Assembly (NCBI GenBank): GCA_029250605.1
Contig: JAQXEZ010000001.1
Span: 2,498-66,497 of the forward strand
Direction: 5' to 3'
DNA: 64,000 nucleotides
From: Candidatus Thalassarchaeaceae archaeon
Lineage (GTDB): Archaea > Thermoplasmatota > Poseidoniia > Poseidoniales > Thalassarchaeaceae
Made by a program: the position numbers and the translations under genes. Positions 10,801-41,865 of this stretch are shown piece by piece (the first letter of the stretch is position 1; the number at the start of each line of letters is the position of its first letter). Below the pieces are notes generated by a model that was not told where the DNA came from, searched no databases, and saw nothing but the letters and a program-made list of their open reading frames with translations.

Positions 10801-11867
10801 GGAGCGACCAGTTCATCCTCTCCGTCCCTAGCCATGAGATCAGGGACCTAGATGGTCCGGAAGACCTCATGGAGTGGTGGGATCAGGCCCTGGGGATGGA
10901 GCACGAGCTGTACGGTTTCCTCCCATGGACGAGGGTCGAGAGGGCAGTCTTCGATGCCCAGATATCCGCTGGCTGGATGCACTCTGGCTACCCCTTCATG
11001 GCTCACGACCTCAGTGTCCCGGCAGTGGTCAACGTCACCTCCATGAGCACCGAGGGCGACTGGGGCATGTTCCACGAGCTGGGGCACAACCACCAGTGGA
11101 TGCCATCTACCCTGCCCGGTACGACCGAAACTGGGTGCAACTTCGCCAGCGTCTACCTGATGGAGGACCTAGTCGGCGTCTCTGGCCACGGGGCCATCTC
11201 CCCGGACCAGCGTGAGTCCAGGACCAGGACCTACTTCGACAACGGGGCGAACATCGCGGACTGGTCAGTGTGGGTCGCTCTGGAGACGTTCCTGATGATC
11301 AAGGATGAGTGGTCATGGGCCGAGATCACATCTGCCCTATCGGTGTACTACGACCTACCAGCAGCGGAAGTGCCTTCGACGGATGACGAGAAATTCAACG
11401 CATGGGTCCTCCATCTGTCTAATTCGACGGGATTCAACCTCGCCCCGTACCACGCTGCCTGGGGGTTCCCACTCGACCAGACCACTTTCGACGCGCTTTC
11501 CCACCTACCCGTTTGGACGGACGACCCCCTCAGAGGCGAGTTCTACGAGTACCCCGCAATCCTGAGGGACCTGTACTCGCCCAGCGTTTCGGAGGCATAC
11601 TCGGTCAACATCTCATGGGGGACCTATGACAATGGGACCAACATCACCCTGACCGTATTCTACGGCACGACCGATGGTGGGACGCAACCCTCGGCATGGT
11701 CTAACAACGTCGAGTTCGGTGAGACTCAAGTTGGAAACGAGTCACTGGAGATCACCGGGCTCTCCTGCTGCGGCACCGAGTACCATGCACGAATCAGGGC
11801 CGCCAATGACGCTGGGGAGACATGGTTCGGCCCGATATCATGGACCACGAACTATCTTCCCGACTGA
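7809..11867 (+). CDS. Secreted lipoprotein-like M60 (enhancin-like) zinc metallopeptidase with Ig-like repeats and an FN3-like C-terminus
   Basis: Start is TTG 7809, with alternatives GTG 7845 or 7854. Signal HRQHVLAVTISLLLLLPGC has a lipobox-like Cys. Five repeats of about 95 aa carry W..P.LP.G(I/L)S....G.ISG.P, resembling the He_PIG / dystroglycan-type Ig-like domain. Zinc site MFHELGHNHQW (HELGH at 11073-11087) matches the M60 HExxH context. The C-terminal module (NISWGT...YHARIRAANDAGE) looks FN3-like. Confidence 0.8.
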   Translation: MRDAQDIQLAPPVRPVHRQHVLAVTISLLLLLPGCASLTESEVEIPVEPDCAMDPTADGCFENTITEEDCSPKQVFTGDMCRTMMRPEMLDFGESEVILEIGEEIQQMTPSFLGDAPSSWAVNPSFPDGISIDPDSGVISGTPAHESSSKSYTIIASNAMGVSSFRLEITVLPPEIISIDLQMETLYCTRGEVCHLETPSFLGGIPENWASDPPLPPGIMLGADGSVSGEPSEIGDSNHTITAYNSAGEASSTLRIITTHASPESIDYGVSHFTFSLGQPISISPSTTGGEITSWQIAPDLTDGLSLSPSGTISGSPDVLQEATGYTITAENSGGATQSTIYIEVIDLPVWDLEYQQVTFDLSLGDDIGSVMPSWGGGTPTIWMAHPPLPTGFSLGQENGVISGVATQLQETSYHTIWANNSAGGDSTQVSFHVISLPPLAVTWPGNEFALASNESASIQPQYSGPSIETWEVDPQLPAGLAISDSGTISGTPDQRTDWSEYTLWANNSGGTTSSSIWIAVHDLAADQSDLLRGMGQTSWGGWPSPVLPIGEWSFPVAFAEGGYTSAIPVISASHVGKGRMLGYGHESWVSGSGGTDETTFSLKAVEWVCGVNAVVGLAYGAGFDGFQDDLESQGHTVRNSVSPDNLSGLDCLLDEFWNGHDDDDNQNIASFLLDGGGVIMGGHAWYWSYSNTDLAHNYPGNKIAKETGLFVSSAWGYNDVDMSEVPHELARPRAAIEAIREDRIEGNALSNAEATIADSTLSLCTSVVSLDFDDFWAPLRDVVNQTGWTVIEYGTLWEDVGYDLGEDPVADTLLRVETALTQGLPADQLPSHPSHQEFPGEVPANASRVARTVSVNGNQSGLPSNFGYSSARAHVRMTTGTYAAPGEVVAVTLPPSIVDSGTYILVGAHSDSLWGKDQLHRHPEIVRWWYVDDTEMEVGNAFGGPIYVAIEPGSTLGLFEVTISNAVVAPTYNHGETDVEDWIQVNRHAPAPWAEIGSDQFILSVPSHEIRDLDGPEDLMEWWDQALGMEHELYGFLPWTRVERAVFDAQISAGWMHSGYPFMAHDLSVPAVVNVTSMSTEGDWGMFHELGHNHQWMPSTLPGTTETGCNFASVYLMEDLVGVSGHGAISPDQRESRTRTYFDNGANIADWSVWVALETFLMIKDEWSWAEITSALSVYYDLPAAEVPSTDDEKFNAWVLHLSNSTGFNLAPYHAAWGFPLDQTTFDALSHLPVWTDDPLRGEFYEYPAILRDLYSPSVSEAYSVNISWGTYDNGTNITLTVFYGTTDGGTQPSAWSNNVEFGETQVGNESLEITGLSCCGTEYHARIRAANDAGETWFGPISWTTNYLPD

Positions 11868-12925
11868 TTCCTCAATAACCCCTCAAGGGACAGTCCGGGG
11901 ACGATCCTCTCATGCAGAACCGCAAGGGGTATCCAGACAAGCGTGTGCAAGATGGTGACCAGGAAAGCCGGGATCAGAGCCAGCCTCGGCTCCCCTTCCA
12001 TCAGAAGAGCCACAGCGCCCAGCACCGCGAAGTGAGACACATAGATTGTCAGGGAAAGCCTCCCTGCGGGTTCCAAAAGAGACAGCTTTTCACCCATAAG
12101 GGGCTCTCCCCCAGATTCCTCTTCCCCCTCTAGCACCCTAAGGGCCAGTGCCACCATAGTTCCCGAGACAACCAGGAAGGGCATGCTAGCAGGGAAGAAA
12201 GTGAGGACAGCATCTCCCGAAGTCAGAGCCCAGTCAACCCCCTCGGCTACGGACAATGCCAATGTCATCGAAGTCGCTAGTATTCCCAACACAACCCCCC
12301 TCTCCCTGGCTCTTGAATCCTCACGTAGGTCGTGAAGAACCGTGCCTAGGAGGATGTAGAAGACCCACGGCAAAACCGGATAGGTCCCGTTCCATAGTAG
12401 CCTGGTCACCCATTCCCTCATGCCACTAGCATCGACCCTTTCGAACCAACTGAGATCGGGACCAGAGTTGGACCCCAGAATCAAGGGTGACACGCAGAAC
12501 AGTAGCATCAACATCGATCTGGTCCCCATGCTAGTCCTCACTAGAGCGGGGCAAATAGCAGCCGAGATGGCAAGTAGGGTGAGAACGCCTGGTGTGTGCC
12601 ACTCGAACCTCCCTCCCCTCTCAACGTTCAGAAGTACGTTTACCAGAATCTGACACATGCATAGGAGGACAAACCTAGGCATTATCCAATTTGCCCATTG
12701 GCTTGCCGTGTGGCCCTCCGATAACCTCCTAGAGGCACTACTGTACATCCCCCATCCGGAAATCGTGACGAACATCGGAGCCGCCATCCCTCCGAAGGCA
12801 GCCGCAACGAATGCTGCAGGGTGGCCCACGGTAATCCCACTGGGGGGGACGATTGCCGCTGTGTGCACCTCGACCATGCAGAGGACTGCGATAGCCCTGA
12901 TTCTGTCTATATGCTTGAGCCTCAT
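11852..12925 (-). CDS. Polytopic membrane acyltransferase-3 / DUF1624 (HGSNAT-like) family protein
   Basis: The N-terminal MRLKHIDRIRAIAVLCMVEVH fits the R..(I/L)D..R(G/A).A...M...H opening of these families, followed by about 10 hydrophobic helices. ATG 12925 is preferred over the track start 12949. Its 3' end overlaps the convergent M60 gene by 16 nt. Confidence 0.6.
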   Translation of the reverse strand: MRLKHIDRIRAIAVLCMVEVHTAAIVPPSGITVGHPAAFVAAAFGGMAAPMFVTISGWGMYSSASRRLSEGHTASQWANWIMPRFVLLCMCQILVNVLLNVERGGRFEWHTPGVLTLLAISAAICPALVRTSMGTRSMLMLLFCVSPLILGSNSGPDLSWFERVDASGMREWVTRLLWNGTYPVLPWVFYILLGTVLHDLREDSRARERGVVLGILATSMTLALSVAEGVDWALTSGDAVLTFFPASMPFLVVSGTMVALALRVLEGEEESGGEPLMGEKLSLLEPAGRLSLTIYVSHFAVLGAVALLMEGEPRLALIPAFLVTILHTLVWIPLAVLHERIVPGLSLEGLLRNQSGR

Positions 12926-12999: not shown

Positions 13000-15726
13000 T
13001 CACCCTTCATCTTCGTCTTTTCCGAATCCCAGCATCGACCTAGTGCTAGGATCTGATAGGCCGTATGCCAGGGACGCGATCGAGGTCACGTACATCAGAG
13101 CGACAACCGTGTGTACGGCAGTCAATGCGGTTCCAGCCGTTCCTCCGAAGTTGGTCCAACCCATGGGCCCCAGGTTGTCCGAGACTTGGCCTGTGAAGGT
13201 CTCTGCCCCCTCGTCATCGATCTCACTGAAAACGTGGATCTCGAATACTGGCATCGACTCGGTGCTATCTTCCGAAAGGTCCGGGTCCAAGAAACCGGGC
13301 CCGCGTGTGTCCAAGTAGAAAGTAACCTTGACCTTCCCATACATTATCGCTGTAGTAACGGGTTCGACCTTCAGTTCTATGTCCGCCCCGAGGTACACCG
13401 GTAGTGCACCGGGAATTACATCAACGTAGGTGGAAGAGCCAATCAACTTCCCTTGGATCTGTGTATTGGTGGGCTCGACTGTCACTGTATGCTCTACCAT
13501 GTCGATTCCCTTGTACGTCGTCTTGCTCCCCACCTCTGAGGTCGCAATTGCGTATCCTGCCACATTAAAGCTGAATGGATCGTTCGGACTCGCTAACGAA
13601 CCAGCGGTCCCCATCAACGAAGTATCAGAATTCCCAGCATGGGCGGTCAGGAGCCCGCTTGCCCCCTCTTCCCTGTGTGGAGCCCTCCAAGTCAGGTGCT
13701 CGGTCATTCCGTACACCTGCCCATCTTCGCATGGGAGATCATAGCCAATGAATGCTCCATTGACATCGTAGTCGAAGTCGCAAAGCCCATTCCCGTCAGA
13801 GTTGATGTAGCCCTGGGCCATCCTCTGGCCCAACGTGTCACCTTTTGTGCTCATCTTGAACACTGACCAGTCTCCGGTGCTGATGCCGTCCGATCCGTAA
13901 TAGGTTGCATTCGTCTCTAGACTGTTCCAGGAGAAGAATCCGAAGTACGCGCTAACAGCATCGTCCCAGCCGTATAGCCAGTTGCTGATTGGCATCGAGT
14001 AGTAGGGCGTGTTGCCAGTTACGAAGTTCAGCAGAACCGGCATCACCGTGTCGAAGTAGAAATTGGCGACCCAGTCCCTAAGTGCGTGAGCCGCATCCTC
14101 AGTAATGCCGTACAGGTTAGCGACATAGGCATCGTCCCAGACGTGCTGCACCCCTTCTGCATCAGGAAGGCTCAACCCGGAAAGCTCACCATACATGAAT
14201 GGCCCTGGGAATGATGACTTGAGCCCGATTTCCGGGTCATTTAGGATGAAATCAGATTGCTCCTGAGTCAGTTCCGCCATACCTGCGAAACCGTCTCTAT
14301 TCAGCCCTATTGGAATGTAAATGCCACCCAAGGGATCGTAGTCCCCGAATGCAGTTAGCCACCAATCATTGGAGGCCATGGTCCCCTGTCCACCAGCAAG
14401 AATCAACTCGAACTCAGTGGGAGCACCAGTTAACCCCAAGCCGACCCAAGGCTCCACGTAATCTGCAAGGCCAGCAATCGTGAGTAGGCCAACGTTGTAT
14501 GTCGTCATAGCCCCGAAGTAGTCTGCACTCTGGAGAGGCAGAAGTAATCCAACCACCATTCCCGGCAGGGGGATCCCACTGATTTCGAATGAGGTGAGCA
14601 TCCCAACGCTTTCGTTGAATAGCAGGTTATCTAGTGATGCCGGATCGCTGATGGTGAGTCCGCTAACCTCTGCGAACCTCTCCTTCAGTTGGGGAGTCTG
14701 GTTGTTCACCTCTGCTCCTCCTCCCTTCTCGACGAACTTTGAGGCTGCCAATGAATAAACAGCCCAGTCCATGTGTGTTGCGAAATCTCCAGAGTACCCA
14801 TAGAGGGCGGCTCTGGTCGCTGTGACAGTGTCACTTGGAGCACCCATCCCTGCAATCAGTACCGGTCCAATGTCGCACGTAATGGCAATGCAATTTCCAC
14901 TCCCGTCATTCGCATTGTAGAAAATTGACTTGATAGCTGCCGCATCATAATCCCCAGTTGACATCGAACCATCAAGTCCGCTCTGTGACAGGGAGGCTGC
15001 GTACGAACCTAGCAGTACTTGCTCCTCAACACTCATGTTGCCGAACTTCCCCCCACCAGCGGCGTCCGCCATTGCCCCGATGTCATCGGATGCCCAGATG
15101 CTAGGTGCCCTGTTGGAGAGGTCGAATTCAATCATCTGAGCTGCGAACATGGCCTTAGCGAATATCTCTCCGTACTCGATGCCGCTACCCATTCCCGCTA
15201 TCCTCTGGGTGTTCCAGAGGATGTTGATCTGGTTGACTACGGTGTCACCGGACAACGAATCGTGCTCCACTCCATCGTCATCCGCCCAGGTGCAATCCTC
15301 GCACCACTCGAAGGTCTCGTATCCAGAGTATGTGATCGAACCCTCGTCATAGTCGAATTCGATGACCTCTCGAGTCGTGTTCTCGTAGTAGATGAATGGG
15401 CCTAACATCTCATAGGTGGGCTCAACCGTCGCATCAGCCAGTATTTCCTCCAAATTGGTGATCGAGTTGCCGAAGTACGCCTTCTCGGAAGATGCGTTGA
15501 TCCAGTCGTCATCGAAGTCAGCCGTATAATCCTGGTTTCCATCATCATCCAAGCCGTCGTAGCTTCCTGCAACCGTATCTGCTACGGTTCCTTCGATGAT
15601 GCCGTCTATAGTCCCTGTGACTCCTATTCCGACGTTTACCATCAGTAGCAGTGCCCCAATTATAATTGCAATAGTTCCCTTGTTCTCCATAGTTTCACTC
15701 AGACATCCGAAAAGGGGACTAGGCAT
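13000..15726 (-). CDS. Two-pass membrane protein with a large ectodomain and CD36/LIMP-2 (scavenger receptor class B)-like motifs
   Basis: 908 aa. N-terminal TM GTIAIIIGALLLMVNVGIGV and C-terminal TM ALTAVHTVVALMYVTSIASLAYGL. AYFGNSITNLEEILADATVEPTYEMLGPFIYYE resembles the CD36-family block YFFNVTNPEEIL....E.GPYTY.E. NWLYGWDDAV resembles ELLWGY.DP. An alternative start is ATG 15690. Confidence 0.55.
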   Translation of the reverse strand: MPSPLFGCLSETMENKGTIAIIIGALLLMVNVGIGVTGTIDGIIEGTVADTVAGSYDGLDDDGNQDYTADFDDDWINASSEKAYFGNSITNLEEILADATVEPTYEMLGPFIYYENTTREVIEFDYDEGSITYSGYETFEWCEDCTWADDDGVEHDSLSGDTVVNQINILWNTQRIAGMGSGIEYGEIFAKAMFAAQMIEFDLSNRAPSIWASDDIGAMADAAGGGKFGNMSVEEQVLLGSYAASLSQSGLDGSMSTGDYDAAAIKSIFYNANDGSGNCIAITCDIGPVLIAGMGAPSDTVTATRAALYGYSGDFATHMDWAVYSLAASKFVEKGGGAEVNNQTPQLKERFAEVSGLTISDPASLDNLLFNESVGMLTSFEISGIPLPGMVVGLLLPLQSADYFGAMTTYNVGLLTIAGLADYVEPWVGLGLTGAPTEFELILAGGQGTMASNDWWLTAFGDYDPLGGIYIPIGLNRDGFAGMAELTQEQSDFILNDPEIGLKSSFPGPFMYGELSGLSLPDAEGVQHVWDDAYVANLYGITEDAAHALRDWVANFYFDTVMPVLLNFVTGNTPYYSMPISNWLYGWDDAVSAYFGFFSWNSLETNATYYGSDGISTGDWSVFKMSTKGDTLGQRMAQGYINSDGNGLCDFDYDVNGAFIGYDLPCEDGQVYGMTEHLTWRAPHREEGASGLLTAHAGNSDTSLMGTAGSLASPNDPFSFNVAGYAIATSEVGSKTTYKGIDMVEHTVTVEPTNTQIQGKLIGSSTYVDVIPGALPVYLGADIELKVEPVTTAIMYGKVKVTFYLDTRGPGFLDPDLSEDSTESMPVFEIHVFSEIDDEGAETFTGQVSDNLGPMGWTNFGGTAGTALTAVHTVVALMYVTSIASLAYGLSDPSTRSMLGFGKDEDEG

Positions 15727-15898: not shown

Positions 15899-15958
15899 CC
15901 ATAATTGCAACCTGCAATATTGACACATTTAGGGTCCGACTTGGGCGAAGCCTCAAAT

Positions 15959-16918
15959 ATGGTTCGACCAGAGGATTTTGTGATGAGTGCATCGTTTAGA
16001 GTACCGTTGATGATACTGGTTGTCTATTTCATGAGCCTCTGCTCGGGAGTAGCCGCAGTTCAAGCACAGACATCTCCCGATGTCTCGCTCACTTGCGATC
16101 AACCAGCCCCGATCGAGGTTTACCCAGGCGCACTGAGGTCTACGATCATCTACTGCACTCTGACAAACCCTACCACCTTCTCCGAGAAGGTTGACCTGAC
16201 ATACCAACAGGGGATAATTTCGGTAGCCGGGCCTGGTTCTGCTACCGTCCCTCCGGGAGACACCTCCTTCCAGGTCGCTGCTAGGGCAGATTTGAGGCAG
16301 CCAGAAGGGCAACAGGTCGTCACAATCACAGCAACTGTGACCCAATGGAACGGAGCGCCTGTGACTGCAGCAACTTCCCCTACCGAGGCCAAGGTGATGA
16401 CTGTCTTCAAGCAGTTTAGCAGACTGAGGGTCGGTGCAGAGCTGGCCTTCATCCAACTGAGGCCGAAAGTCGACTACACCCTAGTGTTCGATGTATACAA
16501 CGATGGCAATGCAAGGGACAAGTTCAATGTGGAGGTCCAGAACTACGACGAGTTGAACGACGAGGGTTTCCAATTGAGCCTACCTCTGATCTCGCAGGAG
16601 ATTGACTCGCTCGCGCCTCCGGAGAAGTTCAGGGTGCAGATGCGTACTCCGAAGAACCAAGGATGGACTGACAAGTACTTCAATCTGCAATTCAAGGCCA
16701 CCTCTGAGTACTCGGTTAGGTCAGAAGGAATTCCGAATACCCAGATTCAGGTCATGACCATCTACATCAGAGGGGTCTACCTTCCTGGATTCGAACTAGT
16801 GGGAACGACGATGATGGCCGCTCTTGCTGGTGCTGCAATAGGACGGAATCAAGCCAATGACGAACGACTCGTCGATGAAGATGGAAACGTCACCCCCCTA
16901 GATAGTAGGATATTCTAG
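15959..16918 (+). CDS. Secreted Ig-like/CARDB-like protein with a C-terminal TM anchor
   Basis: The track ORF starts at 15905, only 4 nt after the tRNA, so ATG 15959 or 15983 is more plausible. Signal MILVVYFMSLCSGVAAVQA. Two beta-sandwich-like segments (e.g. VFDVYNDGNARDKFNVEVQ...PKNQGW). C-terminal LPGFELVGTTMMAALAGAAIGRNQ plus an acidic tail. Confidence 0.6.
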   Translation: MVRPEDFVMSASFRVPLMILVVYFMSLCSGVAAVQAQTSPDVSLTCDQPAPIEVYPGALRSTIIYCTLTNPTTFSEKVDLTYQQGIISVAGPGSATVPPGDTSFQVAARADLRQPEGQQVVTITATVTQWNGAPVTAATSPTEAKVMTVFKQFSRLRVGAELAFIQLRPKVDYTLVFDVYNDGNARDKFNVEVQNYDELNDEGFQLSLPLISQEIDSLAPPEKFRVQMRTPKNQGWTDKYFNLQFKATSEYSVRSEGIPNTQIQVMTIYIRGVYLPGFELVGTTMMAALAGAAIGRNQANDERLVDEDGNVTPLDSRIF

Positions 16919-16995: not shown

Positions 16996-18246
16996 TTGAG
17001 TGAAGGTGGTTTACTTGAGAAGGCTGCTGAGCAGAGTCCAAGCCAAACCCCAGTTGCTGTCATGCCTTCCGAGGAGGCTCCAAAAGTAGCAGGACCCGTT
17101 GAAGCGGCAAAGTCAGTGGCATTGTTCGGCTTGCTCCCAATCCTTCTCTTCCGGGCTATCTTAGTCTACTTGCCAGGGGGCATAGATGAACTGGTGCTAC
17201 CGTTCACATCGATTTCTCTGGTGATGGCAATAGTCTTCTTCGCCTCTCTCGCATTTGTCATGTGGAGGCTTGGCTTAGTGACGACTACAGGGCTCGCAGT
17301 TTCTGGCTCTGGATCAGTAGCAGCTTCTATAGTGGTAGTTTCATACCTGCTGATGCTCCTCTTGCCAATGGTGATAGGGGTTTTCTTGGAGGGGGAACTG
17401 TCCGTTGGCCAAATTGAGTATAGTGAGGACGGCGAGTCGATAACAGTCAACATACTACAAACTACCATGTCAGACAGGGAATTGGAAGCAGGACTCGTTG
17501 TTTTGCAGTCAGGATCCCAAGTCTGGAGTTCCACCGCTAATGTGACTATCGACAGCAGCGATGGAGAGAGTGAGATTACAATCCAAGTGAGTGAATTCTA
17601 TTCTTCAAACGCCCTCCCAAACTCCCCTTACACACTCAAGGTGACTATCGATGGAAAGGAGCACACTAGAGATTTGACTTACAGCACTATACAGTGGGAC
17701 TCATCACAATGGACAGGAGCCGACGCACTCACTCGTGACATCACTGGTGTTGATGGTATTGCCCGAGGTGTTGTGAAGGAGGATCCCGACAGATGCAGCG
17801 GAGATGCTCAGAACTGCCTTGTCGGGGTGGTGATGTCAGGTTGGGCGGGACTAGACACTGGGGCGGAATATCCGGCCAGGATGCCATTCGCTGATTTCAC
17901 CGTTGAAGCAGTGCTCATGGAAGGGAACGACGTAGCAATTGCATATCCTACAATTACGGTTGCGAACACAGTCGCCACTTGGGACTCTAATGGCGGTTTG
18001 TTTGGCTCTGGATCTGGATATTGGGGCGACTACGGTTCTGAGTTTGCAATGGGGGGCTCGGTCTTCGATGCAAACTTTGGGAAGTACGTACCGAAGGACG
18101 AGTTCGACTCTGCAGGTGACTATGGCTGCTATTCTTTTATCATCACAGTCAGCCAAGAAGGCTCTAACTCCCTTTCTGATACCTCCTACTACGAGTACAG
18201 CACGAGCAATTCAAACGATATCTGGGCATCAGTCTCAAGCTGTTAG
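16996..18246 (+). CDS. Hypothetical membrane protein with N-terminal TM helices and an extracellular domain of about 280 aa
   Basis: 416-aa ORF with a TTG start. It has 3-4 hydrophobic helices in residues about 40-130, then a Ser/Thr/Gly-rich soluble domain. No recognised motif. Co-directional with the preceding gene. Confidence 0.55.
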   Translation: MSEGGLLEKAAEQSPSQTPVAVMPSEEAPKVAGPVEAAKSVALFGLLPILLFRAILVYLPGGIDELVLPFTSISLVMAIVFFASLAFVMWRLGLVTTTGLAVSGSGSVAASIVVVSYLLMLLLPMVIGVFLEGELSVGQIEYSEDGESITVNILQTTMSDRELEAGLVVLQSGSQVWSSTANVTIDSSDGESEITIQVSEFYSSNALPNSPYTLKVTIDGKEHTRDLTYSTIQWDSSQWTGADALTRDITGVDGIARGVVKEDPDRCSGDAQNCLVGVVMSGWAGLDTGAEYPARMPFADFTVEAVLMEGNDVAIAYPTITVANTVATWDSNGGLFGSGSGYWGDYGSEFAMGGSVFDANFGKYVPKDEFDSAGDYGCYSFIITVSQEGSNSLSDTSYYEYSTSNSNDIWASVSSC

Positions 18247-18984
18247 TCAGTCATTGATGCTCGAGAGGAACTCCCTCATCCTTTCCGTCTTCGGTTCATC
18301 GATTATCGATGAAGGCCCCTCCTCGGCAACAAGACCCTGATCCATGTATATCACTCGGTCAGCTACGTCCCGGGCAAAACCTATCTCGTGGGTAACAACT
18401 ACCATCGTCATGCCTTCTTCCGCCAGCCCTTGGATAGTCTCGAGAACAGAACCTATTAGCTCGGGGTCTAGAGCACTGGTAGGCTCATCGAACAGCATTA
18501 CCTCCGGCTTCATTGCAAGTGCCCTAGCAATAGCAACCCTCTGCTTCTGGCCTCCTGAGAGGTTTCCTGGATAAGCATCGACTCTGTCAAGCATGTCTAC
18601 TCTATCCAGTACCTTTCGTGCCTGTGACTCTGCTTCTTCCTTGCTCATTCCCCTGACGTGAATTAGCCCCAGGGAGACATTGTCAATCACCCTCAAGTGG
18701 GCGAATAGCTCGAACGACTGGAAGACCATACCGATTCTGGAACGCACGTCATTGATGTCTGCTGCAGGGGTGTTTATCCTCTCGTCTTTCAGCTGGACTA
18801 TTCCCTTGGTCGGCTCGATCAGTCTATTGATGCACCTGAGGACTGTCGACTTCCCACTTCCAGACGAACCGATGATCGCCAGTGAATCTCCCTCGGATAC
18901 TTCGAACGAGACACCTCTGACTGCATGGACCCCTCCGACGTAGGTTTTCTCCATGTTCTTGACACTGAGAATTATCTCCGACAT
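18247..18984 (-). CDS. Polar amino-acid ABC transporter ATP-binding protein (GlnQ/HisP/ArtP-like)
   Basis: Walker [13 protein letters not shown] signature [15 protein letters not shown], Walker [13 protein letters not shown]-loop VVVTHE. Its start abuts the permease stop with no gap. Confidence 0.93.
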
Positions 18985-21396
18985 TCAAGCACCCCCTGAG
19001 ATTCCTAGTCCTGGAATCCTGGTTCTTTCCTCTAGATACCTTAGGAATAGAGCCAGTGTCCAAGTGATTAGGAAGTAGGACACTAGTACCATCCCCCATG
19101 TCCAGAATACTTGGAAAGTAGTCGCTACGATCAACTTGCCCTGCCTAGTTATTTCCGCATAACCTATGATCATAGCCAAAGATGAGTTCAGCACAAGATT
19201 GACCATCTCGTTACCCAATGGCGGGATGCAAATCCTTACTGCCTGTGGCATTACTACCAGTCTCATTGACTGCATATAGTTCAGGCCTATGCTCCTTCCT
19301 GCCTCCATCTGTCCAGAAGGGATGGCAGCAATCGCTCCTCTGATGGTTTCGCACTGGTAGGCTCCCGAGTTCAATCCTAGTGCGAAGATAGCGCTAATGT
19401 ACGCCCTATCTTCTAAGATTCCACCAACCGGACGCCCATAGGCAAGGGATTCCGGATTGGTCTCGTAGACAACGAAGATGTCCGTGAGGAAGTTCGCATT
19501 TCCCTGTAGGTATTCGAAGTTCAATAGCATTAGCCCTGGGTCCTGCATCCGCCTGCCCAGCTCGAATCCGAAGTGGATGAACATGAACTGCACTAGTAGT
19601 GGGGTATTGCGGAAGATATCTGTGTATGCCGTAGCGATTGCGTTTAGTGGCCTAATCCCCCACGGGTTTAATGAGAATTCTGACTTCCCCATCTTTAGGT
19701 CACGAATCGAGAAATTCCCATTGCAGGAGAGGAAAATCCCCCCTAGGATTGCTATAGCCAGTCCGACAATAATCCAGAAAACAGATGCCGGAGCCCCAAT
19801 CGGGGAGTATATATGCTCCCACCCATCTAGATTGAGCGCACTAATTTCATCAAGATTGGAGAGGATCCGGTAGACTCCGAAAACAAACAATATCATCCCC
19901 ACAACTCTAATCGCGAAAATGTTCAGCGGCTCACTAGCCGCAATCTCTGCTGACTTGCCTTTTATGGAAATCAATATTTTTTCGAGTTTGATAGGGTTTT
20001 CAATAGTCCGGTATTTGCTTCCGATCCCATAATGCCCGATGATATTTAGAACCGAAATGGGAACTTTCAGGATGACCCATAATGGACCTAATGTAGCCAT
20101 AACTAGTAATTGGAGAAATTGGTAACGGTTGGTCTGCGCGACGTTCTTCAGAGTGGTCGGGGAGGTCTTCAGCATCGAAAGAACGATTCCTAGTGAAAAT
20201 CCCATAATTATCCCGAAAAAGACGATTTTGGCGGTTGCAACCAGACCGTCCATCAGCCTCTCTTTGGAGTAGTCGACGAATTGCCCAAAGTCACCGAAGT
20301 CAGCAACCTCGAATCCAATGAACTCCTCCGAACCAGCATTTTCAGTCCTGAGAATGGCCCCTCCATCGCCTACTACAACTCCTGTGAAGCCATCTAGCAT
20401 CGCAAATGCATTGAAACCAGTTTCGTTCGAAACCGGAATCATCTGTTGTGAAACTATGTTGCCTCCATCTTTGCTCAGAGACAAGTAGCCATTCGGTCCG
20501 GCTAGCATAATCTTGGACTGGGATAGAACTTCCAGTGATGAAGCATCATTGTCAAGCTCGGTGCCTCCGGCAACGAACTCATTTCCACCTCCTGCGGGAT
20601 ACTCCCTTTCTATTTCCACTATGTTCCAGACGAAACCTACTGCTAGGTTACCTTCTCGGGACGATTTCAGTATATGCCCATCCTCGGAGATTGCGTATGC
20701 TCTGATGGAGCTATAGTACTCAATGCCAATGATATCCACTGCGGATAATTCCCCAGGGGCATCCCTGTAGTCCCAAGATGATCCTCCATCATCTGTAGCG
20801 AGAATAGTCCCATTCTCGCCCGAAATAATACCAGATTCTTCATCTAGAAAAGAGACACTAAGAAGATCATTCGAAAACCCGATCGAACGATTAATCCACT
20901 CATCGCCGTCAAATTCCCATATCTCCCCATTTTCTCCTACTGTGACAAACTCCTGGCTCCCTTTGAGAGCCACATCGTTAATGAGAAACTGACCAGGAAA
21001 AATTGGAATGTCCTGGTTGCTATCATCTTCGCCATTCCCAATGTTCTCAAGAATAATCAGTACTCCTCCATCGGTCGCAATTAGTATTGAATCATATCCT
21101 GAATCGGAATGCGACCATTCGTGACTCCCTGTGGAGTCCACTTCCCATGTTATGCCCTCGTCGAGACTCCTTAGCATAACCCCTTCATCTCCGAATGCCC
21201 AAATCTCACTGTTGATCGCCTCAGCGGTGTTCAAATTGGCATCGGGCCCCCCATCAACTCGTTCCCATCCACTCCTAACTTCCTGGGCCAAAACCCCACT
21301 GAACGATATCAATAGGAGGAATAGAGCGATCGGCAGAAAAATATTGGAGCCCTTGGGGAGCCTTCGCTCGCTCTCGGTAGATGCTTCCAGCGTCAT
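18985..21396 (-). CDS. Fusion protein: secreted Asp-box (BNR-like) beta-propeller domain plus an expanded polar amino-acid ABC permease
   Basis: 803 aa. Signal IFLPIALFLLLISFSGVLAQE. Asp-box-like SLDEGITW and TDDGGSSW sit in the first ~370 aa. The C-terminal part carries the HisMQ-type permease core (FRNTPLLVQFMFIHFG, LNSGAYQCETIRGAIAAIPSGQMEAGRSIGL...MRLVVMPQA). About 150 aa with extra hydrophobic helices are inserted after the first permease TM. Confidence 0.8.
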   Translation of the reverse strand: MTLEASTESERRLPKGSNIFLPIALFLLLISFSGVLAQEVRSGWERVDGGPDANLNTAEAINSEIWAFGDEGVMLRSLDEGITWEVDSTGSHEWSHSDSGYDSILIATDGGVLIILENIGNGEDDSNQDIPIFPGQFLINDVALKGSQEFVTVGENGEIWEFDGDEWINRSIGFSNDLLSVSFLDEESGIISGENGTILATDDGGSSWDYRDAPGELSAVDIIGIEYYSSIRAYAISEDGHILKSSREGNLAVGFVWNIVEIEREYPAGGGNEFVAGGTELDNDASSLEVLSQSKIMLAGPNGYLSLSKDGGNIVSQQMIPVSNETGFNAFAMLDGFTGVVVGDGGAILRTENAGSEEFIGFEVADFGDFGQFVDYSKERLMDGLVATAKIVFFGIIMGFSLGIVLSMLKTSPTTLKNVAQTNRYQFLQLLVMATLGPLWVILKVPISVLNIIGHYGIGSKYRTIENPIKLEKILISIKGKSAEIAASEPLNIFAIRVVGMILFVFGVYRILSNLDEISALNLDGWEHIYSPIGAPASVFWIIVGLAIAILGGIFLSCNGNFSIRDLKMGKSEFSLNPWGIRPLNAIATAYTDIFRNTPLLVQFMFIHFGFELGRRMQDPGLMLLNFEYLQGNANFLTDIFVVYETNPESLAYGRPVGGILEDRAYISAIFALGLNSGAYQCETIRGAIAAIPSGQMEAGRSIGLNYMQSMRLVVMPQAVRICIPPLGNEMVNLVLNSSLAMIIGYAEITRQGKLIVATTFQVFWTWGMVLVSYFLITWTLALFLRYLEERTRIPGLGISGGA

Positions 21397-21486
21397 GTTG
21401 CCCTATCACTCGCTGGACTCCGAGGATTTAGTCTAGCCGACCATCATGACCTAGATTCCCACAAAGAATGCCATTGGGCAATATTG

Positions 21487-24698: not shown

Positions 24699-27600
24699 CT
24701 ATCTGTCAAGAAGCCTTCTGAGCCTCTGATCATACTCATCCCCATCCTCGACTTCTCCCTGTCGGACGAACTCCACTCCATCGCTATCCGGTTCTTCGAC
24801 CTCATCTTCAAACGATTGTTCAGTCTCTTCAGGAGTCTCGGACTCATCGTTATCGCCTTTTGGCACGTTCTTTGACATCTTCTCATCTATCGCTGCCTGT
24901 GCCAGGGCCATAAGTCGCCGCCCTTCCCTACGATTACTAGCGATCCAAGAAATGCCGAGGTACATTCCAACGACAAGGATGGCCACAATCAAACCTGTTC
25001 CGAACTCATCGAACTTGTCCTCCAACGCCGAACCGCCGCTAAGGACAAGGCTAGTCTCGTCGTCACCAGGGTCTGAATCCATGTCCCATGGGAATGAGCA
25101 ACCAATGGTCACAACCAATTGAGTCCCATCTTCCACATCCGGCCTATCGAATTTAGGAGCCGGCACGAATGCCTGGGTCATGTCGATCACATGCTCTGAG
25201 AAGTAGTCTCCAGCACTCATTGTGATGGTGCAGTCGGCATCGACCAAGACATTCTCGTTGAGTCTCTTTGTTCCGATGTTGATCTTCTGACTCGAACCCT
25301 CCCCTACCAATTCCACGACCCCAATGCCGACGTTCCAGTCGCTTCTTCTGACATCGAACATTTTTTCTTCTGATATGATCAATGCTCCCTTTCCGTCTAG
25401 CAGACGGATGCCGATGCTCCTCTTACCTGGGTCCGGGTTCCAATCAGAACCGCTAAGGTTGATGGATTGGGCGGTTTCGTTCTCCGATAGGATGCCGAAA
25501 CTGGAATCCAGAACAACTCCGTCATCCCCAATAAGCAGAATTTGGAATTCAAAAACCTCGCTTCCATTGGATATCGAGCATGATGCACGCACGTCTTCGA
25601 AACCACCCGAAAATGAGCAAATTGCACTTCTGGGCTCTGACTTAGAAATTGTCAGAGAGTAGCTAAGTGTAGTACCTCCGTCAACAGTCAGGCTTCCATT
25701 TGTTGTTGACTCGGCGGAGAGAAGCCACCCCATGCCACCCCACTCCAGTTGGTCTCCGGAAACCTCGTCGATCAATATTGAATTCTCACTTGTCCCATGG
25801 ACCCTGATTAGCGCATCGTCCCCCTCGTAGGAGAACAAGTACGGGGAACTCTCCCACGAGTGCTCGTTAAACTGGGCCTCTAGGGAGATCTCCCTCTGGT
25901 TTCCTATAGTGTCCATGGCCAAGATTCTGACACTCTCGCCGTCATCGCTCCAATCCTCGTCAGGAACGATCTCAATCGGAACGCCCCTAACTTCCCCAAC
26001 TCCGAGTACAACTCTCATGGCTCCCCTTGTTTCCCAATTAGGAGGTAGATCTAGTACTTGGAACTCTATTGTCGTTGGAGTGTTTCCTGTGTTCGCAACC
26101 ATTGCGTTGGGAAGCCCACCCAGGGGCGAAACGATCCAAGGTCCCGAACCCTCCATCGAGAAGTTGAACTCCGAAGACACCCTCAGGGGCAGGGTGATCT
26201 CCATTAGCCCAAGGGAGTCGCCCTCTCTCACCCTAATGTGCAATTCAACAGTCTTGCTTGGCGTAGCCGTTTCTGGAGGGGTGACATTGAATGCCAACGT
26301 AGTCGAAGAGCCTGGTTCGACTTCCGGCAGATCGTTCAATCCATCGATCAACCACCCGTTCTGGCCAGAAATATAGGCCGAAACGAAGGGCGTACTCGGA
26401 GTATTTCCTTCCTGAATTATCTCGATTTCTACCGACGAGCCATTGGCGTCTATTTCCAAATCAGCCATAGATGAGGAGATCCTCCAACCGGGGATCCTAG
26501 AAACTTCGACGAAGAAGTGGAATTCCATTACCACTTCATTCCTGGCATCAGCGATTACATCCACTCTCATAATTGACCCATTCCAGGAATCTTCAGGGAC
26601 CGAAGCGGAGATTGACAGTGACTCGGTCCCGTTGACCGCAACTCCAGTGGAAGAGCTTCCATTTGCTTTCCAGTCCTGTGATGAATCCGAACCGATCAGC
26701 AACAACTGGGTTTCAACAAAGAGAGATAGGTCATCAACCAAGTTCCCCGTATTTGTGGCATTTATCGACATTGTCTTGCTCTCTCCCGGAGATAGAAGGA
26801 AGGTCGAACCATTGATTGGAGAACCATCTTTCACCAGGTCAATCTCCCATCTATGGTCCTGCCTGACTTCGAAAACCACCACTTCCTCCTCAGACACCGT
26901 ATCATTACCCTGCGAAGTCATGGTGAAAGAGATGGAAATGGGAATCCTGGCTGGTGCGTCTTCAGACAATGTCACGCTAACTGGCACAGTCCTGAGGCTA
27001 CCTGCACCAAGTTCAACGGGGTTGCTGGAGAAAGAAACCTCAATCCCTGGGTCGGAAGTGATGTTCTCATCGAGGATTAGCTCATAGGAGAGTGAGTATG
27101 CATCATCGCCATTTCCAGGATTCTCAAGACGTAGTACAACCAGGTTAGAGTCTTCAACGTCCACTACGAATGGCTGTGTTGTGGGGGAGTTGATTTCCAA
27201 ACCAGCTCGGTGAATCTGCAGAACCTCGATTGAAAGGGCCAATGGCGACTCAGAACCCGCCGTCCCCCCACTGCCCTCAAAGAGATGGAAAGAAGGCCGA
27301 GCATCCTCTGGAAGGTCAAGCGAAAGCGTCCCACTAACTCTCGAACCAGGATTCCCAGATAGGGAAATCACATCCCCCGTGACTGATAGATGCCCGTTCC
27401 CGGCCCATGACCAGCCTTGGATGGCCATCTCAGAATCGGCCAGTGACCAATTAACATGGCCATCTCCCTCGGGCAAGTCTGCCAATATCTCCCAAGTCAG
27501 GTTCTGAGTGGGTACGGATCTGATGTGGCTTGGTTGTACGACTGATCTAGAAGCAACAAACTCTAGTTGGATCTGACTGCACTCTTGCTCTTCCCCAGAG

Positions 27601-30353
27601 CCGACGCACATGCTTAGTGGGGTGCTGACGCTCTCGCTGGGACTAGTGCCGCTCGGTACGGCTAGTCTCGCCGTCACCTCCTTCATCTCACCAGGACCAA
27701 GGGAAAGTGCGCTAATCTCATCCCCCTTGGAGTCAAAAATTCTGAGGTCAGAGCCCCAATCGGTGCCATCCCATGATATCGCAATCTGCTCCTCAGCCGC
27801 ATTGCCGACGTTCTCAATCATCAACCAAGCCCTAGCATCTTCGGACACTAGTCCTAAACCGGTACTTTGAGCCGTCCCGTCAGGGCCTCTGAGTGACATC
27901 CCTCTGGTCCTGTTCGCTTCTATAGGGATGTTAGCGGATATTTCAGCAGACCCGTCATCATGAGAGAGTGTGAGGGCCAGGAAACCGGAATCGGAGCCCA
28001 GAGCTCCCGAGGGAGAGACGATTTTGAGAACCGGACTCCATAATTCATCTACTTCAATCTCTACTGAGATAATTCCCCCGGGGGTCTCGTCCACCCACGT
28101 CCACCCGTTTGGCAAGGAAGAATCGTCCACGTCTAGTGACCAAGTTCCTGCCAGCCTCCCCGTCGACCTAATTCCAAATTCTGCATAACCCTCGCTACCG
28201 GGGTCGATTCGCAGAGGCTCGGTCGGGATTTCGAATGATGCATTGTAAGTCGGGATAATGGAAAGTGTACGAACCTGGATATCGTTGTCATATCTTGTTT
28301 GGCTCAAGTTGAGATATGGGTCCAGAACTAATTCGAACGTGTGTTCTCCCAACCCCCCGCTCCATTCTAAGCTAAAAGATGAGAACGAACCCGAACCACT
28401 GGGCTCCACCGGAGTCATGGACGAAATTCCAGCCCCTCCAATCTTCTCCCCGTTAGCATATAGGGCCACGTCTACAACCTCGTCAGTCTCCGCCGTCCCT
28501 GCATTCTCGATGTAGACGGTCACTGTGACATCTTCTCCCGGATCTGGGGCACTGGGATTGAACTCGATCCCCCTGCCATCCGTCAATGGCCTTACGTCTG
28601 GCATTGCAGTTGAAACAACCATGCTACCAAGAACTATGTCGAGAGTCGCATCCCCATCAACATCTGCCAAGGAAGGGGATGCCCAAGTCCTATGTTCGAG
28701 CTCGATCTCGTCTGACCATTCTGAGTTAATTCCCGCAGGAGATCCCGTAGAACCATCGAAAGCCCAAAGTGACCTTCCATAGGAAACCAGTAACTCTGGC
28801 TCATCCTCGGAATCAATATCCATCCACGTGGGAGCAGCAACCGCAATCTCGTCGTTTGGATTGCCACTACTCTGCTCTAGGTCCTGAGCCCATTCTTGAT
28901 TAGGGGTGCTCCCCCCAACGTCATGGCATCCAGCAGCACCATGCCTATCCGTTGTTGTCTGCCACCATGTATTCCAGCATACTCTATCATGAGTCCCATC
29001 GCCATTGGTGTCAATCGCGGTAGGAGGAGCATCAGCGAAGCCATTGGATGCATCGAATTCCCACAATTGAGAACCATCGGAGATCTCCAACCCTCTGAAT
29101 TCAGCCCCATCTACCGCTGTTGAGCCATCAGCATCACTGGGAATTGTAATGATGATTTCTGGGTCCCCATCTGAATCTAGATTTGCGATAATGGGGCCGG
29201 GTAGTCTGATGTGAGGAGAATTCGTATCTCCATCCAGGTTGTTCAGCGACAGCCCACCTTGCCAGATCGAACTCCCAGTTTCTGAATCTATCTTCCAAAC
29301 CCACATCCCGCCATTGTTCGCCTCAATGGTGGTCAGAATCACGTAACCAGTGTCGTCGTCAACCTGGGCGAAAGCCGGGTCGGAGGGGTGACTACCTTTG
29401 CTCAGTGCTACTTCCCAAATTGAATTCGGAGTCCCATTAACCTGAAGCGGCAAAGCGAGGACAACGGGGTCTTCAGAAACCTCGTCTATAGCAGCGATGA
29501 CCAATTCAGCATCTCCATCTAAATCGATGTCGGCAAGCAGGGGTTGAGTAGTAGGCTTGTGACCGCCAAGAATCCCACTTGTATACGGCCCCTCGTCACT
29601 GCTAATCATCAGAGAGTCGTCATTCCATGACCAAAGCAACTCCTCCGAATGTCCTGAGTATGACCATCCTGTAACCGTGCATGAGAGCCTCGGAGACCAG
29701 GCATCTACGTTCAATGACCCTCCGGCATCATACGTGACTAGAATCTCGGCCTTCCCATCTTCATCGATATCCACTATCACCGGAGCTGCCTTTATTTTCT
29801 CAGTTTCTCCCAAATCAACCTGCCATGAGAGTTCAGAATCTTCTCCCTCAATTAGACGGAGTATGCTGTGATCCGATCCCGACACATCCTCTGTTTGGAC
29901 CAATATTGTGAACAGAGAACTCTCTCCGCACCTCTGTGCTGCTCCAGGCCCCACTTCGATAGAACCTGAGAAATCAGCAACTGGAGTTGCAAGAGAATCA
30001 GTCCCAATCGAGTATGAGCCATAGGCCCAATTCACAGATGGCTCCACAATCGACAGAAGCGATTCAGAGTCGGCAGGGTTTCCCGTACCCGATCCGCCGG
30101 ATGGGCCATGATTGGGGATGTCTGCAATCCTAGATGCGGTTCTACCAGACTGAGGCCAGGGTTGGTCCCCATCGACCCAAACTTCGTCCTCCTCTCCTTG
30201 CGTGCCCATTATTGCACCTAGATACTCTCCGAGGAATTCTTCTTTGGACGTATCCAAATTGGTGGTTGCCAGCGGAGTTGTTAGTAGAGATGCAACCACT
30301 ATGGCGCAAATCGCTTTCCGCCGCGACGCTTGCACTAAGGTTGCTGGCACCAT
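24699..30353 (-). CDS. Giant cell-surface protein: FG-GAP/VCBS-type beta-propeller plus multiple CARDB/Ig-like domains, a C-terminal TM anchor and an acidic tail
   Basis: 1884 aa. Signal ICAIVVASLLTTPLATT. Repeated Ca-binding blade motifs are present (DIDEDGKAEILV, DIDLDGDAELVI, NLDSDGDPEIII, DTNGDGTHDRV, DIDSEDEPELLV, DVDGDATLDIVL). There is a CARDB-like segment (GEDVTVTVYIENAGTAETDEVVDVAL...RYDNDI) followed by many beta-sandwich-like units. TM is LIVAILVVGMYLGISWIA, then RREGRR and an acidic tail. Confidence 0.8.
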   Translation of the reverse strand: MVPATLVQASRRKAICAIVVASLLTTPLATTNLDTSKEEFLGEYLGAIMGTQGEEDEVWVDGDQPWPQSGRTASRIADIPNHGPSGGSGTGNPADSESLLSIVEPSVNWAYGSYSIGTDSLATPVADFSGSIEVGPGAAQRCGESSLFTILVQTEDVSGSDHSILRLIEGEDSELSWQVDLGETEKIKAAPVIVDIDEDGKAEILVTYDAGGSLNVDAWSPRLSCTVTGWSYSGHSEELLWSWNDDSLMISSDEGPYTSGILGGHKPTTQPLLADIDLDGDAELVIAAIDEVSEDPVVLALPLQVNGTPNSIWEVALSKGSHPSDPAFAQVDDDTGYVILTTIEANNGGMWVWKIDSETGSSIWQGGLSLNNLDGDTNSPHIRLPGPIIANLDSDGDPEIIITIPSDADGSTAVDGAEFRGLEISDGSQLWEFDASNGFADAPPTAIDTNGDGTHDRVCWNTWWQTTTDRHGAAGCHDVGGSTPNQEWAQDLEQSSGNPNDEIAVAAPTWMDIDSEDEPELLVSYGRSLWAFDGSTGSPAGINSEWSDEIELEHRTWASPSLADVDGDATLDIVLGSMVVSTAMPDVRPLTDGRGIEFNPSAPDPGEDVTVTVYIENAGTAETDEVVDVALYANGEKIGGAGISSMTPVEPSGSGSFSSFSLEWSGGLGEHTFELVLDPYLNLSQTRYDNDIQVRTLSIIPTYNASFEIPTEPLRIDPGSEGYAEFGIRSTGRLAGTWSLDVDDSSLPNGWTWVDETPGGIISVEIEVDELWSPVLKIVSPSGALGSDSGFLALTLSHDDGSAEISANIPIEANRTRGMSLRGPDGTAQSTGLGLVSEDARAWLMIENVGNAAEEQIAISWDGTDWGSDLRIFDSKGDEISALSLGPGEMKEVTARLAVPSGTSPSESVSTPLSMCVGSGEEQECSQIQLEFVASRSVVQPSHIRSVPTQNLTWEILADLPEGDGHVNWSLADSEMAIQGWSWAGNGHLSVTGDVISLSGNPGSRVSGTLSLDLPEDARPSFHLFEGSGGTAGSESPLALSIEVLQIHRAGLEINSPTTQPFVVDVEDSNLVVLRLENPGNGDDAYSLSYELILDENITSDPGIEVSFSSNPVELGAGSLRTVPVSVTLSEDAPARIPISISFTMTSQGNDTVSEEEVVVFEVRQDHRWEIDLVKDGSPINGSTFLLSPGESKTMSINATNTGNLVDDLSLFVETQLLLIGSDSSQDWKANGSSSTGVAVNGTESLSISASVPEDSWNGSIMRVDVIADARNEVVMEFHFFVEVSRIPGWRISSSMADLEIDANGSSVEIEIIQEGNTPSTPFVSAYISGQNGWLIDGLNDLPEVEPGSSTTLAFNVTPPETATPSKTVELHIRVREGDSLGLMEITLPLRVSSEFNFSMEGSGPWIVSPLGGLPNAMVANTGNTPTTIEFQVLDLPPNWETRGAMRVVLGVGEVRGVPIEIVPDEDWSDDGESVRILAMDTIGNQREISLEAQFNEHSWESSPYLFSYEGDDALIRVHGTSENSILIDEVSGDQLEWGGMGWLLSAESTTNGSLTVDGGTTLSYSLTISKSEPRSAICSFSGGFEDVRASCSISNGSEVFEFQILLIGDDGVVLDSSFGILSENETAQSINLSGSDWNPDPGKRSIGIRLLDGKGALIISEEKMFDVRRSDWNVGIGVVELVGEGSSQKINIGTKRLNENVLVDADCTITMSAGDYFSEHVIDMTQAFVPAPKFDRPDVEDGTQLVVTIGCSFPWDMDSDPGDDETSLVLSGGSALEDKFDEFGTGLIVAILVVGMYLGISWIASNRREGRRLMALAQAAIDEKMSKNVPKGDNDESETPEETEQSFEDEVEEPDSDGVEFVRQGEVEDGDEYDQRLRRLLDR

Positions 30354-41739: not shown

Positions 41740-41811
41740 GCCACTGTGGCTTAGAGGTATAGCGTCGCCTTGGTAAGGCGAAGGTCGGGGGTTCAATTCC
41801 CCCCAGTGGCT
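41740..41811 (+). tRNA. tRNA-Thr (anticodon GGT)
   Basis: Acceptor GCCACTG/CAGTGGC, anticodon stem TCGCC/GGCGA with loop TTGGTAA, T-arm GGGGGTTCAATTCCCCC. CCA is encoded at 41812-41814. Confidence 0.9.
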
Positions 41812-41865
41812 CCACCCAAAAGTAATTTTTCGAGTAGTAACGTAGATTGGTTCATAACTGATACA

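Follow-up and report, generated by a model that had tools for sequence, protein, structure and literature searches.

A Ycf48-like beta-propeller fused to the permease of an amino-acid-type ABC importer in Marine Group II archaea

Whether an extracellular domain of another fold can take the place of the solute-binding protein (SBP) of a type I ATP-binding cassette (ABC) importer is the question raised by a two-gene locus in a 64,000-nt stretch of contig JAQXEZ010000001.1 from a Candidatus Thalassarchaeaceae archaeon (the window; all coordinates are those of the window, in which the locus is read on the minus strand). A first-pass annotation had placed there an 803-aa permease gene with a secreted propeller at its N-terminus and a gene for a GlnQ/HisP-like ATPase, and both open reading frames (ORFs) were found exactly as placed (Table 1). 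The importer belongs to the polar amino acid uptake transporter (PAAT) family and is specific to Marine Group II; it has an obligatory extracellular propeller and extra transmembrane (TM) helices, and is accompanied by a dedicated SBP in some lineages and by none at the locus in others.

The fusion protein and its operon

The fusion protein was modelled with AlphaFold2 on a 32-sequence alignment, and in the model residues 44-352 form an all-beta block with a predicted local distance difference test score (pLDDT) mostly of 80-90. The top PDB matches returned by Foldseek are the Ycf48 structures 2xbg, 5oj5, 5ojp, 5ojr, 8am5, and 5oj3, with E-values down to 7e-15 and target-normalised TM-scores of 0.68-0.73 (0.71-0.73 for 2xbg and 5oj5) over about 330 columns at about 15% identity, while a profile of the propeller matched Ycf48 chains in the PDB at 3e-19 over most of the domain. 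By these structural and profile matches the N-terminal domain is predicted to be a seven-bladed Ycf48-like BNR propeller. Two Asp-boxes, SLDEGITW and TDDGGSSW, lie at residues 77-84 and 201-208, and the Pfam model PSII_BNR/Ycf48 (PF14870) covers residues 165-228, one blade pair, at 3e-12 (46.9 bits against a cut-off of 27). The initial reading of this region as a signal peptide followed by a BNR/Ycf48-like propeller is thus borne out by hydropathy, AlphaFold2, Foldseek, and profile alike. Likeness to sialidase or glycoside hydrolase propellers was not significant (1eur, E = 0.41; the F510_1955 glycosylhydrolase model, 18.8 bits against a cut-off of 175). The domain shares with Ycf48/HCF136, its top structural and sequence match and homologue, the seven-bladed Asp-box architecture, whereas Ycf48 is a stand-alone lumenal or periplasmic photosystem II factor, a (lipo)protein of oxygenic phototrophs that binds D1, and the propeller described here is archaeal and always fused to a permease. 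Its hosts are all Poseidoniales, which are not known to possess photosystem II. The nearest non-fusion relatives of the propeller are giant multi-BNR proteins of surface type, and in a profile search of 1.8 billion cluster representatives a single full-length match to the propeller was found only in fusions of this kind.

The signal segment ends in a conserved ...SAQE motif, with A37 and Q38 invariant in the alignment of relatives, which is a probable signal-peptidase site. In the HisQ/HisM/ArtQ permease family the N-terminus of TM1 is extracytoplasmic. Since the signal segment precedes the propeller and such a TM1 comes after it, the predicted topology implies that the propeller must lie outside the cell. 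Between the two lies the linker, with 57% mean pairwise identity across the family and pLDDT below 50; in the alignment this propeller-permease junction is among the best-conserved parts of the protein. TM1 itself, at about residues 385-410 by hydropathy, shows 68% mean identity.

Between the equivalents of TM1 and TM2 the alignment and hydropathy reveal an insert of about 170 aa with three hydrophobic segments, so that the extra helices first noted after TM1 are present, although the stretch is longer than the roughly 150 residues originally estimated. The insert begins with a variable helix-A region (residues 413-486), followed by hydrophobic helices at about 487-512 and 535-558, joined by a conserved loop, LNLDGWEHIYSPIG, of the consensus LxLxGWExIYxPxG. 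Helix A is missing from the homologues P0138 and P0102, in which the insert is reduced to the two-helix module. Two added helices would preserve the canonical topology, and the minimal design would thus be a seven-TM permease. In one subgroup of the fusions (P0117, P0119, and P0120) an additional stretch of about 100 aa, which contributes several hydrophobic helices, is found between the insert and TM2 (alignment columns 614-730).

The remainder of the protein is a canonical permease core. The Pfam domain BPD_transp_1 (PF00528) spans residues 583-793 at 6e-14 (52.6 bits against a cut-off of 26.4), the outer loop between TM2 and TM3 is enlarged by about 35 aa (residues 625-662), and the EAA coupling loop, EAG-RSIG...MPQA in the sequence, lies at about residues 697-723 (nt 19228-19308); residues 663-803 reach 84% mean identity across the family. 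The HEQRo_perm_3TM signature (TIGR01726) scores 45.8 bits against the NCBIfam cut-off of 42.2. The top full-length permease models of NCBIfam, GlnP, TcyL, and EhuC, each match below their equivalog cut-offs, and for this reason the models clearly place the protein in the PAAT family by sequence without assigning it a substrate.

The TGA of the permease gene, at 18985-18987, runs straight into the ATG of the ATPase gene, an arrangement by which the two genes are read as one operon and are likely to be translationally coupled. All sequence motifs of the ATPase are intact, i.e., both Walker motifs, the signature LSGGQ, and the H-loop VTHE. Domain annotation, recommended as a check in the first-pass annotation and carried out with Pfam and NCBIfam, thus returned BPD_transp_1, PSII_BNR/Ycf48, a GlnP-type permease, and GlnQ.

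The locus can be compared with PAAT importers (TC 3.A.1.3) of the Art(QN)2, GlnPQ, and HisQMP2 types, with which it shares the BPD_transp_1 core, the EAA loop, the HEQRo three-TM signature, a GlnQ/HisP-type ATPase encoded together with the permease and, in some relatives, a family-3 SBP; the presence of one permease gene and one ATPase gene implies a homodimeric transmembrane domain (TMD). It differs from them in about 350 aa of extracellular propeller before TM1, in the enlarged TM2-TM3 loop, in the lack of a binding-protein gene at the window locus, and in having at least two extra hydrophobic helices between TM1 and TM2 in place of a five-TM permease, with the extracytoplasmic N-terminus apparently kept. 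In GlnPQ and OpuA of Lactococcus lactis, substrate-binding domains (SBDs) are fused in-frame to the TMD, and in GlnP they are N-terminal and stand behind a signal sequence, as here. The domain fused in the present case is, however, a beta-propeller and not a periplasmic-binding-protein (PBP) fold, and a separate SBP coexists with it in relatives. The statement that the architecture departs from the textbook type I importer therefore holds for the secreted propeller, the extra helices, and the missing SBP gene nearby.

Four sets of homologues were assembled: 232 from a word-indexed search, 152 species-level genomes from a scan of species representatives, 80 retrieved loci, and six metagenome loci. 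All full-length proteins among the 232 contain both domains, down to 46% identity. The 152 species-level relatives, 39-94% identical, all belong to the Poseidoniales (Marine Group II), and those assigned to a family or genus are Thalassarchaeaceae, Thalassarchaeum, or Marine Group IIb (MGIIb); the search for the same fusion in other archaeal genomes was thus successful, with a single ORF throughout. Propeller and permease form one ORF followed by the ATPase gene in 80/80 retrieved loci and in the six metagenome loci, and the ATPase gene lies directly downstream in every related locus with downstream sequence.

Table 1. Features of the fusion locus and its surroundings (window coordinates, except for the SBP gene, which is given for a related locus).
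Feature	Position	Strand	Basis or remark
Fusion gene, 803 aa: signal peptide, Ycf48-like propeller, and seven-TM-type PAAT permease	18985..21396	-	ORF list, Pfam, NCBIfam
Residues 1-37, N-terminal signal or anchor segment	21286..21396	-	Hydropathy, alignment
Residues 38-352, predicted seven-bladed Ycf48-like BNR/Asp-box beta-propeller, extracellular	20341..21285	-	AlphaFold2, Foldseek, profile, Asp-boxes
Residues 44-180, fast-evolving mosaic N-terminal blades (1-3)	20857..21267	-	Identity, blade types, dS
Residues 353-384, conserved linker GFEVxDFxDFGQFVDYSKER, propeller to TM1	20245..20340	-	Invariant alignment columns
Residues 385-412, TM1 of the permease, counterpart of TM1 in GlnP/HisQ	20161..20244	-	Hydropathy, alignment
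Residues 413-582, lineage-specific membrane insert	19651..20160	-	Hydropathy, AlphaFold2 secondary structure
Residues 583-803, canonical PAAT permease core, TM2-TM5	18988..19650	-	BPD_transp_1, GlnP/TcyL/EhuC models
GlnQ/HisP-type ATP-binding subunit, 245 aa	18247..18984	-	ABC_tran 4.8e-37, GlnQ model 6e-86
Intergenic spacer, 87 nt, divergent, fusion gene/SAICAR synthase	21397..21483	.	ORF coordinates, locus census
Adjacent SBP gene	L079:8830-9804	-	Also L034, L035, L038-L040, L042, L046, L048, L078, L080-L086, L091-L093, equivalent position
Conserved membrane/secreted proteins of unknown function, convergent to the ATPase gene	16996-18246, 15905-16918	+	No Pfam or PDB sequence match
1352-aa protein, syntenic with M60-like peptidase in L001/L004	7809-11867	+	
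908-aa CD36-like protein	13000-15726	-	
1884-aa large secreted/surface protein	24699-30353	-	
2439-aa large secreted/surface protein	41770-49089	+	
Two S8 subtilases	35771-37681, 39161-40321	+, -	

Binding-protein genes at the locus and elsewhere

The observation that no binding-protein gene is adjacent to the operon was confirmed over the whole window. Pfam did not find SBP_bac_3 in 31 window ORFs (most of those of at least 180 aa), and two SBP hidden Markov models (HMMs), run unfiltered against all six-frame ORFs of at least 80 aa, gave nothing better than E = 0.1. Neither Pfam nor the two HMMs detected SBP_bac_3 in the fusion protein, which thus carries no recognisable PBP-fold domain fused to its permease, and no SBP remnant was found in the 87-nt spacer. 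The two conserved proteins encoded convergently to the ATPase gene were considered as cryptic binding proteins and rejected, as by sequence they resemble nothing in Pfam or the PDB and their distribution does not follow the absence of the SBP.

The same HMM search, extended to about 1.4 Mb of related loci, revealed an ORF of about 325 aa, recognised by Pfam as SBP_bac_3, divergently adjacent to the fusion gene in 17/80 loci; three more contigs from metagenomes are arranged likewise. The order in these loci is SAICAR synthase, SBP, and then, divergently, the fusion gene and the ATPase gene. In the remaining 63/80 loci, as in the window, SAICAR synthase directly abuts the fusion gene (87 nt upstream of it in the window) and no SBP is encoded within 10 kb. 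A cognate SBP gene immediately outside the operon, named beforehand as the finding that would speak against a propeller in place of a receptor, is therefore present in a part of the relatives and absent from the window's own lineage. Since the propeller and a dedicated SBP coexist beside the same permease, the origin of the propeller does not lie in a replacement of the SBP, and the original suggestion that it substitutes for the binding protein is not supported as an account of how it arose.

The adjacent SBP begins with a signal peptide and ends in a hydrophobic, transmembrane anchor at its C-terminus. Its profile matches amino-acid-binding proteins, among them AncQR (3.5e-15), a Thermus binding protein, ArtJ, GlnH, and the SBD tandem of GlnP (6h30), with the halves in swapped order: residues 32-144 align to canonical positions 126-231, and residues 194-292 to canonical 25-115. 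This swapped order indicates that the protein is a circularly permuted family-3 binding protein, as far as can be judged from the alignment. Opposite the Arg of the TEER motif of AncQR, which we take to be the canonical carboxylate-binding Arg, the SBPs have Met, Lys, or Glu. An AlphaFold2 model of the SBP, built from 11 sequences, reached a mean pLDDT of only 49.9 and was not used for a fold search.

Other receptors of the amino-acid type are encoded in genomes of the group. L-amino-acid SBPs were reported in most MGIIb subclades (Tully 2019). A metagenome-assembled genome (MAG) of MGIIb-O1, in which the fusion has no adjacent SBP, contains aapJ in an operon of its own, with very high transcript counts for that gene (Damashek et al. 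2021, PMC9723583 supplement), and in the same annotation the fusion is entered under the name 'Ycf48-like protein / polar amino acid permease'. In the MAG SIMO Bin 19-2, genes 91-94 form a second PAAT system with aapJ, an ATPase, and permeases that are about 800 aa and about 577 aa long (PMC9723583 supplement). These permeases are far longer than the canonical length of about 220 aa, and PAAT permeases of unusual size may be characteristic of MGIIb in general.

Evolution and possible roles of the propeller

In the window's clade the ratio of nonsynonymous to synonymous divergence (dN/dS) is 0.13-0.22 in the propeller and 0.11-0.18 in the membrane part. Of ten other pairs, SBP-less and SBP-bearing alike, nine gave 0.02-0.33 and 0.04-0.08, respectively, and one, L038-L040, gave 0.20-0.27 in all three regions. 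Purifying selection acts on the propeller with or without an adjacent SBP gene, and neither the constraint nor the sequence of the propeller changes detectably with the presence of the SBP.

This constraint is accompanied by pronounced variability of blades 1-3, to which hypervariability is limited, the C-terminal blades and the linker being highly conserved. The window and L009 are 32% identical in residues 44-180 and 83-99% identical in the rest of the protein. The N-terminal blades fall into discrete types that are discordant with the rest of the protein: the window, L007, L008, and L030 share a type with a distant clade (L004, L011, L022, L023, and L026), whereas the sister locus L009 has another. 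In residues 44-180 dS is 0.40-0.67, about three times the 0.13-0.22 found elsewhere, with dN/dS of 0.13-0.17. The raised dS together with the discordant discrete types points to recombination of a blade module that is probably surface-exposed.

On a larger scale, the fusion gene as a whole is discordant with its flanks. L038 and L082 are 95% identical in SAICAR synthase, 85% in the SBP, 84% in the ATPase, and 50% in the fusion protein, while L082 and L034 are 78%, 35%, 86%, and 82% identical in the same order. In the close genomes L038-L040 and L082/L085 (fusion gene at about 10001-12300 of each locus) the identity of 50% extends along the whole length of the fusion. Because the discordance spans the whole gene, the fusion gene, perhaps with the ATPase gene, has apparently been exchanged between MGIIb lineages by recombination. 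Identity of the SBP, on the other hand, tracks that of SAICAR synthase (r = 0.93, against r = 0.44 for the fusion), by which the association of the SBP with its locus is old within the clades that have it. In the SAICAR synthase tree the SBP-bearing loci fall into two clades, with no copy of the gene anywhere in the super-clade of the window; gain and loss of the SBP could each account for this tree. An ancestral SBP with repeated loss, read earlier from the tree of the fusion protein, was withdrawn, as that gene is discordant with the flanking ones.

The propeller can be considered an accessory ectodomain that works alongside a receptor and not instead of one, a reading to which we give a probability of roughly 0.45. 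In the simplest assembly two fusion proteins would pair as a homodimer and associate with two GlnQ-type ATPases, the transported solute would be a polar amino acid or a small compound related to one, and canonical docking of a receptor to the TMD would provide solute specificity and ATPase gating. The propeller might serve as a platform over the translocation pathway, capturing or concentrating the substrate or its source, such as peptides and proteins; alternatively, it might help to position the receptor, a role comparable to that of MalF-P2 or of the chaperone AztD. AztD likewise folds as a beta-propeller but is a free, soluble protein of a cluster A-I metal system, with no sequence relation to the propeller described here, which is covalently fused to an amino-acid-type TMD. 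In the AztABCD zinc importer AztD is an accessory periplasmic metallochaperone handing its substrate to the SBP AztC (PMC7731109). The P2 domain of MalF binds and recruits the binding protein MalE throughout the cycle of MalFGK2 (PMC6906923). Like the propeller it is a large extracytoplasmic domain of a type I importer TMD, and by analogy a recruiting role may be proposed for the propeller; MalF-P2, however, is an Ig-like domain of about 185 aa between TM3 and TM4, whereas the propeller is N-terminal and seven-bladed, with a putative SBP contact. In the window's lineage a receptor encoded elsewhere, e.g., of the AapJ type, would be borrowed, or the transporter would be receptor-independent; that AapJ also serves the fusion transporter is conjecture.

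Several points weigh against an accessory ectodomain working with a receptor. The loci without an adjacent SBP (63/80) include the window's entire super-clade, and AapJ has permeases and an ATPase of its own. Orphan copies of the clade-specific SBP, sought as the initial annotation had proposed, were not found in other lineages: the 8 close matches to a single sequence and the 12 to a profile all belong to the same clades, a weak negative given the word-index tool used. The pairwise identities show no co-evolution of the SBP with the propeller or the fusion, which argues against a specific propeller-SBP interface, although one formed by conserved residues would be compatible with them. Any ligand of the propeller is putative, and the membrane part of the AlphaFold2 model, with pLDDT of 40-60 and a predicted TM-score (pTM) of 0.45, was set aside as a guide to how the propeller sits over the pore. 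Transcript counts of the fusion were very low in one data set (PMC9723583 supplement).

The propeller might instead have a role unrelated to solute delivery, with transport itself conventional, an explanation that we regard as unlikely but worth keeping in view. The propeller might tether the complex to the S-layer, the envelope, or a secreted hydrolase, serve in Ycf48-like assembly or quality control of a membrane complex, or act as a surface module against viruses or grazers. With such roles agree the fast evolution of the N-terminal blades, with their discrete shuffled types and raised synonymous divergence, the exchange of the whole fusion-ATPase cassette between lineages, the lack of co-evolution with the SBP, the giant multi-BNR surface proteins as nearest non-fusion relatives, and a neighbourhood rich in giant secreted proteins and peptidases. 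On the other hand, hypervariability stops at blade 3, any non-transport partner is hypothetical, and the obligatory fusion to this one permease everywhere, with a conserved linker and conserved C-terminal blades, points to a function coupled to the transporter.

A further alternative, which appears rather improbable, retains the original idea for the SBP-less lineages only, including that of the window: the propeller itself would be the substrate receptor of a natively binding-protein-independent type I importer, binding a solute or peptide termini as Ycf48 binds a D1 peptide. It draws on the missing SBP genes in the window and within 10 kb in most relatives, on the search for orphan copies, which found none, limited in sensitivity as it was, on the purifying selection acting on the propeller in SBP-less lineages, and on the peptide-bound Ycf48 entries 5oj5, 5ojp, and 5ojr among the closest structures; the propeller is also fused at the outer face of TM1, in the same position as the SBDs of GlnP. 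Yet wild-type type I importers need a docked binding protein to trigger ATP hydrolysis, and the propeller, found together with an SBP in two organismal clades, predates the loss of the SBP or is independent of it. Its constraint and sequence are indifferent to the SBP, the hypervariable mosaic blades at its N-terminus seem unsuited to a fixed small-molecule site, and other family-3 SBPs exist in MGIIb genomes. A more specific version, in which the propeller of SBP-less MGIIb lineages captures an amino acid or peptide terminus and also gates ATP hydrolysis, with the hypervariable blades tuning specificity, is a long shot; if true, it would be the first natural type I ABC importer without a receptor of the periplasmic-binding-protein fold.

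An artefact, i.e., a frameshift or misassembly joining two genes, or decay of the SBP-less operon to a non-functional remnant, is effectively excluded, for although some database entries of 476-542 aa lack the propeller and one study gave low transcript counts, independent assemblies of many samples yield the same single ORF, which is not split by a frameshift or stop in any complete related locus examined, the junction is among the best-conserved parts of the protein, dN/dS is low in both parts of it in the window's clade, and all ATPase motifs are intact. The short 'permease-only' entries in public collections (P0105-P0112 and P0116) were considered as separable genes; P0109 lies on L090 (4984-7629), where a scaffold gap of 100 N with duplicated flanks separates it from the propeller half, just upstream in another frame, and on this ground P0105-P0112 were rejected, none of the short entries being a genuine propeller-less variant. 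The 'propeller-only' entries P0145, P0164, and P0208, considered as a stand-alone ancestor, are fragments of the fusion that run into TM1 at contig ends.

Genomic setting and significance

The two conserved proteins encoded convergently to the ATPase gene are confined to the super-clade of the window and one basal clade, and a glutamate dehydrogenase gene lies at that position in at least O1 and one SBP-bearing clade. The GC content of the window is 0.56-0.60 over the first 12 kb, 0.55 at 12-14 kb, and 0.46-0.52 from 14 kb on. Apart from the 1352-aa protein, the first 12 kb encode glycine-cleavage P proteins, GMP synthase, and serine hydroxymethyltransferase (SHMT). The giant secreted proteins and the subtilases (Table 1) fit the protein-degrading lifestyle proposed for the group. 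Poseidoniales have also been described as (photo)heterotrophic, with proteorhodopsin (PMC9723583).

Text searches of the literature returned no paper on a beta-propeller fused to an ABC importer permease and none discussing this fusion, which annotation pipelines label only as 'ABC transporter permease' or 'Ycf48-like protein'. The propeller-permease design is real, widespread in Marine Group II, and undescribed, though it can be found in public annotation tables. The Poseidoniales rank with the most abundant archaea of the surface ocean, and proteins, peptides, and amino acids are their presumed food; as they are uncultured, their transport biology is inferred from annotation alone. The mosaic outer blades and the exchange of the cassette suggest that selective pressures beyond transport act on this surface module. 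The same propeller-permease with and without a dedicated, apparently circularly permuted, membrane-anchored SBP amounts to a natural experiment, and it offers a tractable system in which to ask what extra ectodomains add to type I importers and whether the classical receptor is dispensable.

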